Assembly: GCA_964016885.1 (NCBI GenBank)
Contig: OZ024740.1
Span: forward strand, 373,302,001-373,366,000
DNA from: Eledone cirrhosa
Taxonomy: Eukaryota
DNA: 64,000 bases
Direction of reading: 5' to 3'
Both the position numbers and the translations under genes were made by a program. The notes under the pieces were generated by a model. That model made no database searches. It had not been told where the DNA came from and saw only the letters and a list, made by a program, of their open reading frames with translations. The first letter of the stretch is position 1, and each line of letters begins with the position of its first letter. Shown here piece after piece: positions 11,391 through 56,617 of this stretch.

Positions 11391-12000
11391 AAATGCTTTT
11401 TAATACTGCTTTCTTTTTCAGTATATTTTATTTTCTACCGGCTATATTTGGTCCTTCTTATTGCTTTTAATATTTATTTACAGATATTTCTCACTTTCAG
11501 ATGATCCCGCTTTAGGTGAAATCAAAAGCTAGTCTCTTAATCTTTGAGTCTGTACTGATAAATATATATTTGCTCTACGCGTTTATATATACCTATACAG
11601 TGTATACAGACATTATCAAACCCTCTGTCTTATGATTAATTATATATATATAATTTAATATATATATATATATGTATGTATGTATGTATATATATATATA
11701 TATATATATATATATATATATATATATATATATATATATATATTAGTTTAGCGAGGTTTTTTATATGAAATCGTGTGTCGAAACAAATATTGTTATACTT
11801 GGGGAGGGTCATATTTGTGTAATATTGCCAGAATTAATAACATAACACACTCACTGTTTGGTTGGCTTTCGCTTGTCGCTGTCTTTTATATCTGCGATCT
11901 AACTTACTCGGTCCTCAATGTTGCCATTGACTGACCGACGGTCAAAAATAATACAGATACAATATAGACACAAACACATATATATAGTTTACATAATTTA

Positions 12001-12042
12001 CATAAATCTTTCGTTGCACATCTGCAACATCGTCAGTGGTGT
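12001..12042 (-). ncRNA. Hammerhead-like motif, family B
   Basis: CTGACGA-T-GTTGCA gatg TGCAAC-GAAA-GATTTA. Perfect stem II, weak stem I. Confidence 0.68.
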
Positions 12043-13297
12043 AATATTTTTTTCTTCCTCCTGCTGTGTTGTATGTCTACGCCATTTTTTATTCAGTCTG
12101 TCTATATATTTATTTATTTATTTGCTTGTTTGTTTATTTTATTTTGTCTTCTTTGCGCATGCGTTTGCGTGTGTGTATAGTGTTATGTTTGATGTGTGAC
12201 TAGTGTGTATAGTGTTGTGTCTGCTGAGTGACTAGTGTGTGTTTATGTTCTTCTTGTTATTGTGCTTGTGTATGTATTTATTTATCTTATTTTATTTTAT
12301 TTTATTTACTTATTTATACTTCTCTTAGGTCAGTGTTGTTTGTTTGGGTGTTGTTGTTGTTCCATTCATTCTTTCTGTTTAGCTTTGGTCTTCTAATTTC
12401 TATTTCACTGGCCTCTCTGATTTGCCTATCTGCTGGGTCATTCCTATGTTTAGATATTATTCTAATTTCTATGTTGTCTATGTTACCGTCATGTTGTTGT
12501 CTAGCATGTTCGTATAGTACTGACCCGTTTTTTCGTCCTTTTTAGTTCCCCCCAGTGTTGGTCTATCCTTTAACCTATGCTACGAGCTGTCTCACCTATG
12601 TATGCTGTTGTCATGTTTCTGCAAGTACCCTCTGTACATCTTATGCTATAGACTACGTTTCTAGTTTTACAGTTTATCTGGGGGTTCACCTTACATATGA
12701 TACATTTCATATTGGTACAGTGGGTTTTCTTAAAAGGGTAGGTTTTGCTGATCAGGGATTTTATGGTGGTTCCTGGCTTTTCTAACACCTTTATTTTTAA
12801 GTGGGTCTTTCTCAGGGCCTTTCTACACTGATTAGCTAATTTCCTTCCAGGGGTGGCGTCCACAAATATGACACTCTGATATCTCTGGTTGTCGTACCAT
12901 GATGTGGCCTTCCCTATCTTATGTCTAGCCCTATCTAAGCTATTCCATGATTTGCTCCTGTATAATGGGCAAATTTCTTTCATGTCCAGTTCTATGAGGG
13001 TCTTATACTTTTCCATGGCTCCTTCGTATACTCTGACACTGTCTCTTTGGTTGTAGCCAGAGAACTGCATGCAGTTGATGAAGTGTTGGATGTGTCTTTC
13101 CATTTCTGTTGGGTCGCACATGCTGGATACATTCTTCATCACTCGTACCAAATCTGCGATCAGAATATTAAACTTTGCATGCGCAAAGAAGACAAAATAA
13201 AATAAACAAACAAGAAAAATAAATAAATAAATATATAGACAGACTGAATAAAAAATGGCGAAAACATACAACACAACAGGAGGAAGAAAAAAATATA

Positions 13298-13340
13298 ACA
13301 CCACTGACGATGTTGCAGATGTGCAACGAAAGATTTATGT
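13298..13340 (+). ncRNA. Hammerhead-like motif, family B
   Basis: Same core as 12001-12042, in the opposite arm. Confidence 0.68.
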
Positions 13341-13550
13341 AAATTATGTAAACTATATATATGTGTTTGTGTATATATTGTATCTATATTATTTTTGACC
13401 GTCGGTCAGACAATGACAACATTGAGGACCGAGTAAGTTAGATCGCAGATACAAAAGACAGCGAGAAGCGAAAACCAACCAAACAGTGAGTGTGTTCTGT
13501 TATTAATTCTGGCAATATTACACAAATATGACCCTCCCCATATATATATA

Positions 13551-13958
13551 TTGGTAAACGGAAAAGAAAATGCTGACAAATTGTTCACAGTGAATCATAG
13601 TTTAATTAGGAATACGTGGGAATTTGTAATAGAATTGGTTAGTATTCAGATTTGGTTTTAAGTTTTACCGGTTGCGCATTTCTAATGCTTTTCAAACATA
13701 ATTTTGAGATAGAGCGTCCGTGACGTTTGCTGTGATCTGAGCAAACATCACGGACGCTCAATCTCAGAATTATTTTTGAAAAGCATTTGAAATGCGCAAC
13801 CGGTAAAACTTAGAACCAAAACTGAATAGCAAACAATACTATTACTAATTCTCACTTATTCCTAATTAAACTAGTTTTCACTGTGAACAAGTTGTCAGCA
13901 TTTTCTCTTCCGTTCACCAATATATCATAACTTGTGTGTTACACCTCTATTCTTTTAA
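13551..13958. mobile_element. Family A fold-back palindrome
   Basis: Arms of about 185 and 220 bp are reverse complements around GATC at 13734-13737. Flanked by (TA)n. Confidence 0.85.
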
Positions 13959-53049: not shown

Positions 53050-54024
53050 TATCTATATATATATATATTAAAATAACAGATTAAAGTTTAAGCAAAGAAT
53101 CGCTGCTTTCAGCCTTCTGAAACTAAACAAATCAATCTGTGAACGCAGAACTAAGTATTTCGAAAAACGTTGCAACTGGAGGAAAACAGGAAGACGATAC
53201 TTTGGTTCGTGAAGGCGTTCCTTGGCAATGAGAACTATATTTGTCATAATATCGTAATGCAGACAGCCAGCCATACACACATATATTATAAGGGCGCGAT
53301 CTTATAGCTATGCATCTATCTAAAAGGACACACTAAGAAAGAGAGAGAGAGAGATCGATAACCGGCGCCTAACAACGGAAAACTGAAACATAAAACTGCA
53401 GTTAATATCTTGAGAGCGCAAGGAATATATAAATGCGAGTTTAAAGTCAATCGGAGTAGAAATGTGGATTTGTATAGAGTTTGCGAAAAATAGAATTCAC
53501 ACACACGCAGATAATTTCCGTTGTATATATATATATATGTATATGTATATATATATAAATATATATATATATATATATATTTATATATATATATATATAT
53601 ATATATATATATATATATATATATATATATATATATATATATATATATATATATATATATATATATATATATATATATATATATATATATATATATATAT
53701 AGTATTAAGGATACTATTTATGTTATGTAGAAATGTGGATTTGTATAGAGTTTGCAAAAAATAGAAAACACACACACGCAGATAATTTCAGTTGTATATA
53801 TATATATGTATATGTATATATATAGCGGCGATGAATTAGTTTTGCGAGGTTTTTTATATGAAATCGTGTGTCGAAACAGATATTGTTATATTTGGGGAGG
53901 GTCATATTTGCGTAATATTGCCAGAATTAATAACAGAACACACTCACTGTTTGGTTGGTTTTCGCTTCTCGCTGTCTTTTATATATATATATCTGCGATC
54001 TAACTTACTCGGTCCTCAACTCGG

Positions 54025-55070
54025 TCCATACACCAGAGTATAACTGTAACTATAGACTTCCCTTCCAAACACCATAACAATAGACTACCTGTATTAGACA
54101 CAGAACTCTGGATTAAGACTATAGACGAGAGAGCCCAAATTCTCCACTCACACTATGCTAAACCCATGGCCTCCAAATACCTGATACTCAAAAACTCAGC
54201 AATGTCCAGTAGTGCTAAGTTTAATATTCTGATCGCAGATTTGTGATGAAGAATGTGTCCAGCATGTGCGACCCAACAGAAATGGAAGGACACATCCAAC
54301 ACTTCATCAACCGCATGCAGTTCTCTGGCTACAACCAAAGAGACAGAGTCAGAGTATACGAAGGAGCCATGGAAAAGTATAAGACCCTCATAGAACTGGA
54401 CATGAAAGGAATTTGCCCACTATACAGGAGCAAATCATGGAATAGCTTAGATAGGGCTAGACATAAGATAGGGAAGGCCACATCATGGTACGACAACCAG
54501 AGATATCAGAGTGTCATGTTTGTGGACGCCACCCCTGGAGGGAAATTAGCTAACCAGTGTAGAAAGGCCCTGAGAAAGACCCACTTAAAAATAAAGGTGG
54601 TAGAAAAGCCAGGAACCACCATAAAATCCCTGATCAGCAAAACCTACCCTTTTAAGAAAACCCACTGTACCAATAGGAAATGTATCATATGTAAGGTGAA
54701 CCCCCGGATAAACTGTAAAACTAGAAACGTAGTCTATAGCATAAGATGTACAGAGGGTACTTGTAGAAACACGACAACAACATACATAGGTGAGACAGCT
54801 CGTAGCATAGGTGAAAGGATAGACCAACACTGGGGGGAACTAAAAGGACGAAAAAACGGGTCAGTACTATACGAACATGCTAGACAACATCATGACGGTA
54901 ACATAGACAACATAGAAATTAGAATAATATCTAAACATAGGAATGACCCAGCAGATAGGCAAATCAGAGAGGCCAGTGAAATAGAAATTAGAAGACCAAA
55001 GCTAAACAGAAAGAATGAGTGGAACAACAACAACACCCAAACAAACAACACTGACCTAAGAGAAGTATAA
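54025..55070 (+). pseudogene. PLE RT C-terminus/thumb + Cys linker + GIY-YIG endonuclease, 5'-truncated
   Basis: CTNRKCIIC, VVYSIRCTEGTC, YIGETARS..RIDQH..EHARQHH, REASEI..LN. A 7-nt deletion near 54243 relative to B1 (DLVRVMK) shifts the frame. Confidence 0.88.
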
Positions 55071-55320
55071 ATAAATAAGTAAATTAAATTAAATAAAATA
55101 AGATAAATAAATACATACACAAGCACATAAACACACACTAGTCACCCAGCAGACACAACACTATACACACTAGTCACACATCACACACGCAAACGCATGC
55201 GCAAAGAAGACCAAATAAAATAAGATAAACAAACAAGCAAACAAATAAATAAATATATAGACGGACTGAACAAAAAAAATGGCGTAGACATACAACACAA
55301 CAGGAGGAACAATGAATATA

Positions 55321-55362
55321 ACACCACTGACGATGTTGCAGATGTGCAACGAAAGATTTATG
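55321..55362 (+). ncRNA. Hammerhead-like motif, family B
   Basis: Identical core to the other four B copies. Confidence 0.68.
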
Positions 55363-56617
55363 TAAACTATATATATATGTGTTTGTCTATATTGTATCTG
55401 TATTATTTTATTTTTGACCGCCGGTCAGTCAATGGCAACATTGAGGACCGAGTAAGTTAGATCGCAGATATATATATATAAAAGACAGCGAGAAGCGAAA
55501 ACCAACCAAACAGTGAGTGTGTTCTGTTATTAATTCTGGCAATATTACGCAAATATGACCCTCCCCAAATATAACAATGTATATATATAAATATATATAT
55601 ATATATATATAGTATTAAGGATACTATTTATGGTTATGTATATACTAAAACCTTTTATAGTTATATATATTTTAAACCATAAATAGTGAAAGACGGTAAT
55701 TTATTACTACTTTATTACCAGTAAGATAACTAGCTCAATGTAATAACATCAGTTGTTCTACAGAGCAGTTATATAGAAATAACATGAATCAAAGTTCTGT
55801 TCAAACCATTTATTCGCTTAATATTGTTTCTTCCAAACTGAGGTTTGGGGTCTTCGTACCAATTTTTCAATGATTGTTTACATACATGACCTCCTTTCCA
55901 ACACAAGAGACATACAGAAACATATGTATATATTGATGCACAGTGGGTTGACATCCATTATAATATTTTAGCATGGCAATTTGCATTCAAAGATTAAAGT
56001 CATATCAAAAGAAAACAAAATTAAAGTTAAAATACAACATTGGCAGTTTACGAAGATAATGCAAGAGGATAGTTAGAAGTAGTTAGTGTATGCAATAGTT
56101 ACACGTGGGGCATGCACGTGTGTATTATTTATATAAGATTATATCCTACATTATTTCGTCTTTTCCCAATCTCAGTTCTTATATTGTATTTCTCCTTTGC
56201 AGGCATACTCACATGTATTTTCCAAAATTGTTGACCGGAGCTTAAAGCGTATACTGTTTTTTAATGAACTTATATCTCATTTTACTTATTTTTAGCTCAT
56301 TTTCCAACATTCTTGTCACTTAATCTCTACTCTGTCTCAATTCAATATCCTTTTCTTATTTTTCCTTCTTAAATAACATTGCCTTGGACAGAACGGAACT
56401 ATAAAGAGGTACACGCACGCGCACGCACGTGCACGTGTACCCACACACAATACATATATATATATGTATATATATTTAGGTTAATAGGAGCTAGGTATTG
56501 TATACCCGTGTCCCATTAAGGTATTGGCAGCATAATAATTAGCTCTATGCTTTGGAGCAGAGCCGTATATATGATAAAGAACACAAGAGCGTCTACAAGA
56601 TCAAAAGATTTTTATTG

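Follow-up and report, generated by a model that had tools for sequence, protein, structure and literature searches.

Why does one arm of an inverted retroelement insertion carry a 3′ tail that the other arm lacks? The question is raised by a 64,000-nucleotide stretch of the Eledone cirrhosa genome (contig OZ024740.1; hereafter the window), which has a GC content of 33%, contains numerous (TA)n tracts and harbors head-to-head insertions of Penelope-like retroelements (PLEs). An earlier note on this DNA had claimed that each inverted pair combines one full-tail arm with one short arm, and had attributed the asymmetry to different priming at the two ends of a cut (TA)n target. We assessed both claims in the window and in the 3.0-Gb assembly that holds it. 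Throughout, F denotes a tailed end and S a tail-less one, fetched loci carry L numbers, and family-B positions are numbered from the ATG of the open reading frame (ORF) of the next tandem unit.

Pairing of tailed and tail-less ends

All head-to-head pairs in the window (9/9) join one tailed and one tail-less 3′ end, both facing outward into (TA)n, which bears out the claimed asymmetry. The distance from S to F, put at ~35–70 nt in the earlier note, has a true range of ~30–83 nt: ~30 in family A, 43–58 in B, 60 in C, ~64 in E, ~69 in G and 83 in D. The label G was assigned here and probably corresponds to the note's pair F; the note's labels came without coordinates, and the mapping is ours. 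If that pair is G (16797–17092), it fits the rule. If it is instead the two retroelement 3′ ends at 27971–28336 (+) and 31213–31576 (−), it does not: these ends, 83% alike and presumably RTE-like, point inward and stand outside the pairing rule.

A search of the assembly with a 25-nt family-B core returned 9481 exact matches. Among the first 100 matches listed, every head-to-head pair, chosen irrespective of tail, was F+S (15/15), including one whose tail is interrupted at +37 by another insertion (L038). Both 3′ endpoints of inverted pairs were also tabulated, the check that the earlier note had proposed, in an automated tally of fetched loci covering pairs of ≤3.5 kb in families A, B, C, D, E and G; this tally overlaps the set of 15. 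The 115 pairs comprised 103 F+S, four S+S, no F+F and eight unresolved (F+S/S+S/F+F by family: A 19/1/0, B 37/2/0, C 10/0/0, D 19/0/0, E 6/1/0, G 12/0/0). Independent choice of the two ends would predict 53 F+S, 29 S+S and 25 F+F among the 107 resolved pairs and is rejected at p ~1e-21; independent or random endpoints, named by the earlier note as fatal to its model, are not what the families display. Loci L111–L175 had been selected by end state and were excluded from the D part. Multi-unit B and window E, whose pairs exceed 3.5 kb, lay outside the tally, as did pairs with broken anchors (window B2, L031, L036); L251 (E) and L176 (D) entered it without a continuity check. One of the four S+S rows, L088 (B), is a false pairing across a tail-only arm.

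Family-D insertions are stereotyped and ~200 bp long, which made whole-genome counting by gapped patterns feasible, each end being defined by only 4–6 nt. This count gave 3758 F+S, 25 S+S and 140 nominal F+F pairs, where independence predicts 1960, 924 and 1039. On inspection, five of six nominal F+F loci were really F+S with S shifted by 2–3 nt, and the sixth has outer ends F and S; one of six nominal S+S loci was really F+S with a point change. The two F+S orientations were balanced (left 1893, right 1865). F and S termini were also found in nine B insertions of several units and in two long D insertions. The rule is kept in insertions of up to ~15 kb and in copies that are 99–100% identical; F+F is missing even among the youngest copies. 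Taken together, two-armed insertions join one tailed and one tail-less end in ~96–99% of cases.

The position of these ends indicates what the tail is. In family B, whose unit is 4147 bp, the ORF starts 26 nt before S, which places S at +26, and the tail runs on in frame into the next tandem unit as the ORF N-terminus (codons 9–28). A pattern of tail followed by non-TA sequence had 430 matches, and the tandem junction accounted for most of the 100 matches listed. The B F end lies at three positions (+69/71, +79 and +84), each at a TA. In family D (unit 3118 bp) the tail runs on into the unit's 5′ region, and the tails of B and C encode similar peptides, that of C encoding MTLPKYNNIGFNTRFQIKNLAKQIQKRN. 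Since the tail continues into the next unit, neither S nor F is the element's end at the DNA level; both are internal, position-fixed sites inside the start of the next tandem unit, which lends no support to the earlier claim of tailed-arm priming at the 3′ terminus of the RNA. S and F likely correspond to the two reverse-transcription start sites demonstrated in vitro for a lizard Penelope element (PMC11167929).

The distinct B ends (n = 166) are sharply bimodal: 96 are S, 75 of them at +26, and 70 are F. None of the 166 falls at +38 to +64, despite an ATATA at +47–51. Every used site carries 2–5 nt matching (TA)n, at both end types; the D junction moves by 2–3 nt where the target is imperfect (L117, L119–L122), and the B3 S junction has no terminal match. 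From the clustering by position and the unused ATATA we infer that position is primary and microhomology secondary. The earlier proposal that the short end anneals to a TATA-like site is thus supported only in part: the microhomology is there, but position dominates. RNA folding revealed no structure common to the tails of different families.

Concerted priming and its alternatives

Arm length is independent of tail status, as the earlier note had stated. In 50 B pairs the F arm reaches further in 25, the S arm in 19, and the two are equal within 30 nt in six (p = 0.45; the lengths for L035, L037 and L038 are approximate readings); in the window, the long arm of B3 is the tail-less one. Inequality can be extreme, as at L068, where a 63-nt F arm faces a 6.7-kb S arm. 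The arms overlap in 46 of the 50 pairs, and the other four have tail-only F arms.

Both arms usually derive from one source haplotype. In 30 of 37 pairs, an arm's partner ranks among its three nearest arms, and six of seven young two-armed insertions carry a variant common to both arms and lacking in others, though all are ~98–100% alike. D pairs combining a T-type S arm with a G-type F arm, the one mixed polarity counted, number 28, against 3758 G/G and 1396 T/T. As a separate observation, the multi-unit B insertions L051–L061 show a single private haplotype across all tandem units of both arms, the pattern that a circular or homogeneous multimeric RNA template would be expected to leave.

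The inverted junctions are varied, with 27 kinds in 36 D pairs, and B junction positions differ, with overlaps of 1–8 nt or short inserts; this variety indicates that junctions formed independently, while some D junctions recur. Target duplications of ~9–11 bp are visible by eye in ~8 of ~18 informative flanks, B3 among them. The window also contains a ~270-bp tandem duplication (53456–53729 and 53727–55640) whose second copy contains B3, so that an empty target copy adjoins this insertion; read against that copy, the B3 target duplication is ~7–9 bp. At the 5′ junctions of one-armed insertions a hidden inverted tail was sought, and one of 36 junctions had a tiny inverted arm (L073), which indicates that one-armed copies are mostly plain truncations.

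Two further observations concern micro-insertions. At L046:6471–7563, four tandem copies of a whole F+S micro-insertion are separated by (TA)n, which points to amplification after insertion. In family D, which has >5000 copies genome-wide (for example window 40925–40982, L008, L033 and L043), both arms mostly stop 50–65 nt upstream of the short end (92/102 S arms and 69/98 F arms), immediately 5′ of a GC-rich hairpin. A search for a canonical hammerhead core at this place found none, and the cause may be a strong reverse transcriptase (RT) stop, the 5′ end of the RNA or a ribozyme of unrecognised type.

The pairing is best accounted for, at a probability of roughly 0.6, by concerted two-site priming, in which one element ribonucleoprotein (RNP) cuts both strands of the (TA)n target and assigns the two free 3′ ends to two fixed start sites in a read-through RNA. 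The cuts would be staggered by ~9–11 bp and leave two primers. One primer would start reverse transcription at the upstream site S and the other 30–83 nt downstream at F, and the 2–5 nt of TA microhomology would merely fine-tune each junction. The two cDNAs would stop independently and be joined head to head by microhomology-mediated repair. The earlier suggestion that the two target ends are primed in one event by a mechanism common to families is supported, and in vitro precedent exists for two internal RT starts that bracket the tail, for cutting and extension of both strands and for a predicted dimer (PMC11167929).

Within this mechanism, the likelier symmetry-breaker is a single RNA, multimeric or circular, that serves both RT sites of a dimer; an asymmetric dimer carrying two sibling RNAs is the less probable arrangement. 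One RNA is favored because a single S and a single F site give one-to-one pairing, which a symmetric dimer with two RNAs alone would not. Somewhat short of even odds, this may amount to a distinct two-ended integration. An RT dimer bound to one RNA, multimeric or circular, would prime the two cut target ends at a pair of fixed internal sites; it would copy that RNA twice, and the leading cDNA would be displaced by the trailing RT. If true, this would explain the tail, the inverted arms and the one-haplotype tandem arrays in one step, across Neptune/Nematis-type and Hydra-like families.

Several observations weigh against concerted priming. Genuine S+S pairs occur (L020, L085, possibly L251, and ~25 in D), and many insertions are one-armed, which pairing leaves unexplained. 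About ten informative flanks have no target duplication. Arm similarity might also reflect shared age or later gene conversion. Three results speak specifically against a single RNA read at one junction. A second site also differs in two of the 16 mixed D loci, one such site being prone to CpG change. At L056/L057, a 118-bp deletion flanked by short direct repeats affects every one of the three right-arm units and spares the left arm. Barring later exchange or an assembly error, a single RNA segment was thus not the template for both terminal units; a multimeric RNA could present S and F at different junctions and would absorb this case. Tailed arms do not pile up at S in family B, as colliding RTs might cause (four tail-only F arms versus five equally short S arms); this comparison was confined to B, the D comparison being biased by BLAST detection limits. 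In the lizard element in vitro, the strands did not differ in start site, which is compatible with a symmetric target (PMC11167929).

The same pairing could arise by resolution of a DNA intermediate, the endonuclease cutting a fold-back (hairpin) or other double-stranded form with a long stagger, at S on one strand and at F on the other, before integration. Endonuclease resolution is favored in the available text of Craig 2021 (PMC8557442), and that of Arkhipova 2013 (PMC3846280) favors it in an antisense self-priming form. Such resolution predicts strict one-to-one pairing and identical arms; the near-equal arms in 6/50 B pairs and in the C, A and D palindromes fit it, as does the AT-richness of both sites, which resembles the reported cut preference. 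However, a fold-back with a sequence-defined cut polarity would make the longer arm always of one type, and the observed 25:19 split together with L068 rules out a fold-back of fixed polarity. Folding back after priming at F cannot yield L068, and after priming at S the strand to be copied would lack the tail. On RNA, moreover, these two positions have been demonstrated to be where RT starts (PMC11167929), and we consider DNA-intermediate resolution unlikely.

In the earlier note's own version, one primer would sit at the actual 3′ end of the RNA (F) and the second would anneal to a TATA-like site inside it (S), on the pattern of L1 twin priming. This version shares the two-primer logic and is compatible with an RNA processed at F. 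The small shifts of S junctions on imperfect targets fit annealing, and tail-only F arms produce non-overlapping inversions in a minority of insertions (L068, L088, L091, L186 and window D). Against it, the tail runs on into the next unit and its ORF, the B F end has three positions, and lengthening the RNA 3′ end in vitro left the main product unmoved (PMC11167929); the unused ATATA and the B3 S junction speak against annealing, and the arms usually copy the same sequence twice, unlike L1-style twin priming. We therefore judge this version improbable and its mechanism half right: two primers are supported, and the tailed end is not the element's end. A secondary origin, with ends chosen independently, trimmed later by TA expansion or later insertions, or inherited in shape from a master palindrome, draws on the B1 and L038 ends disturbed by later insertions, on the amplified insertion at L046 and on the recurrent D junctions. 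It is countered by the absence of F+F in the youngest copies, the precision of S ends and the rejection of independence, and a master palindrome by the varied D and B junctions; already largely refuted, it deserves very little weight.

Element families and their surroundings

The elements are ordinary PLEs. They show the features of endonuclease-positive (EN+) PLEs: an RT followed by a C-terminal GIY-YIG domain, tandem and inverted copies, and a one-end tail that overlaps the start of the next unit. Partial tandems (pseudo-long terminal repeats, pseudo-LTRs) occur together with inverted 5′-truncated copies, the 4147-bp B and 3118-bp D units being found in tandem and inverted arrays. The B unit encodes an ORF of ~1200 aa, with one frameshift in the copy examined, an RVT_1 hit below the Pfam cut-off (E = 1e-4) and GIY-YIG motifs recognised by eye. 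In the B unit of L052, ORF residues ~245–410 form a long asparagine-rich (AAT/AAC) stretch in the N-terminal half, which resembles the N-rich inserts of rotifer Penelope elements described in the available text of PMC3846280. Families A and C are represented by C-terminal EN fragments; a C-terminal GIY-YIG ORF of family A was found at L250 and L199, and C is a relative of B, with ~58–60% protein identity at the C-terminus at other loci. No ORF is firmly linked to E or G.

By motif, B, C and A would be of Neptune/Nematis type as defined in the available text of PMC8557442 (a CX2-5CxxC linker plus CCHH): a CX4CXXC linker precedes GIY-YIG (CTNRKCIIC in B, CDRPNCDIC in A), and paired Cys and His were seen by eye in the EN core. 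Family D has a 786-aa frame in an autonomous 3118-bp PLE, 36% identical to a window protein with a weak, sub-threshold GIY-YIG hit; Pfam and PDB searches returned no match for the D protein. Its motifs are DKT, RWR (an RWK variant), CNCPDRSIC (CxCX5C), CNLC (CxxC) and CKH (CxH), and its 3.1-kb unit is slightly above the usual 3 kb. The Hydra clade is defined by DKT, RWK, a CxCX5C linker, CxxC and CxH in the EN, absence of CCHH, a short unit, (TA)n targets and a canonical hammerhead ribozyme. We call D only Hydra-like because no canonical hammerhead was found: its last 840 nt contain no CTGANGA core within 8–40 nt of GAAA, and the 801 nt scanned with Rfam, part of the unit, gave no hit. A hammerhead ribozyme in the pseudo-LTR is a further feature looked for in EN+ PLEs; a CTGANGA...GAAA hammerhead-like core was seen by eye in B, C and G (in G, in the left arm), and Rfam returned no hammerhead hit in window 11000–56000. 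A 5′-truncated PLE at 17200–19118 (−), with RT and GIY-YIG fragments 36–38% identical to D and a CxCX5C linker too, represents another Hydra-like family.

Table 1. Positions and end types of the head-to-head insertions in the window
Feature	Position	Strand	Ends and remarks
B1 pair	11742–13546		
B1 tailed arm	11742–13179	−	F end at +71 of the next unit's ORF; 5′-truncated PLE with C-terminal RT/GIY-YIG fragment
B1 tail-less arm	13177–13546	+	End disturbed at ~+12 by insertion A1
A1 palindrome	13546–13960		Left arm tail-less, right arm tailed
E pair	14445–22808		Arms separated by nested insertions
E tail-less arm	14445–14921	−	
E tailed arm	22297–22808	+	Tailed end meets (CA)n first, then (TA)n
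C palindrome	15552–16775		Left arm tail-less, right arm tailed (+60 nt)
G pair (probably the earlier note's F)	16797–17092		Left arm tail-less, right arm tailed; (TA)n at centre; no ORF linked
B2 pair	19595–21678		
B2 tail-less arm	19595–20415	−	
B2 tailed arm	20415–21678	+	F at +71
A2 palindrome	33188–33586		Left arm tailed, right arm tail-less
D micro-insertion	40877–40982		Tail-only tailed arm 40877–40926 (−) and 58-nt tail-less arm 40925–40982 (+), joined by GTAC microhomology
B3 pair	53822–55578		
B3 tailed arm	53822–54019	−	F at +84; shorter arm
B3 tail-less arm	54025–55578	+	Ends at +24; longer arm

The insertions are nested: C, G, the Hydra-like fragment and B2 all lie between the two E arms (14445–22808), and A1 sits at the B1 short end. 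The insertions reuse the (TA)n flanks of one another. Two more palindromes, at 33766–34109 and 52854–53049, have no family assigned, and the second is centred on a (TA)n tract. An abundant repeat of ~190 bp, which we take to be similar to a short interspersed element, recurs at 3378–3565, 11207–11392, 21985–22179, 24257–24447, 47355–47541, 50138–50553 and 52511–52698. Rfam gives sub-threshold microRNA hits on the palindromic micro-insertions in window 11000–56000. The pairing rule provides a boundary rule for annotating thousands of such micro-insertions, which could otherwise be mistaken for miniature inverted-repeat transposable elements or microRNA hairpins.

Relation to known systems

The EN+ PLE insertion unit has been described as inverted pseudo-LTRs with an optional 30–40 bp tail, and one-sided tails have already been published in qualitative form, in the available text of Arkhipova 2013 (PMC3846280) and Craig 2021 (PMC8557442), the latter ascribing the tail to endonuclease resolution. 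The earlier note overlooked that such tails, and their correspondence with two RT start sites, had been published. In those texts, as far as available, the tail is optional and pair counts are absent; here pairing is near-obligate, counted in thousands and independent of arm length, with tails of up to 83 nt. Our literature search found neither a pair count nor a model of concerted use of both sites, though older work (Arkhipova 2006, Pyatkov 2004) may say more; the available text of bioRxiv 10.64898/2026.07.22.740005 and PMC13282606 adds nothing on the ends. The present analysis adds the near-obligate one-to-one pairing and what it would imply, concerted two-ended priming on one RNP.

The closest biochemical parallel is Poseidon from Anolis carolinensis (Frangieh 2024, PMC11167929), in which two RT start sites inside the ORF start bracket the tail, a feature that the present families would share. 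In vitro, its AT-rich target was cut and extended on both strands with no strand difference, and a dimer was predicted. That study neither connects the two sites within a single molecule nor relates them to inverted insertions, and it leaves later steps unvalidated. Poseidon also differs in belonging to another clade, in its non-microsatellite target and in having no reported homology to the cut DNA, in contrast to the 2–5 nt of TA microhomology seen here. Craig 2021 (PMC8557442) lists the way in which PLEs produce their tandem and inverted insertions among the open questions. The near-obligate rule turns the optional tail into a constraint, under which each target end must take one of the two RT start sites and both must be used jointly. 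The rule is relevant to second-strand synthesis in telomerase-related RTs and to the engineering of such elements, and is directly testable in the existing in vitro system.

L1 twin priming offers the other comparison. There, two target 3′ ends prime cDNA in one event, yielding an inversion joined by microhomology; the first primer uses the poly(A) tail, and the two inverted segments cover separate parts of the element. The present insertions would likewise be primed from two target ends in one event, with a microhomology joint at the inversion. Unlike L1, however, they have no poly(A), the tailed end is internal to tandem sequence, both starts are fixed, and both arms copy the same sequence, overlapping in all B pairs measured except the four with tail-only F arms (46/50).

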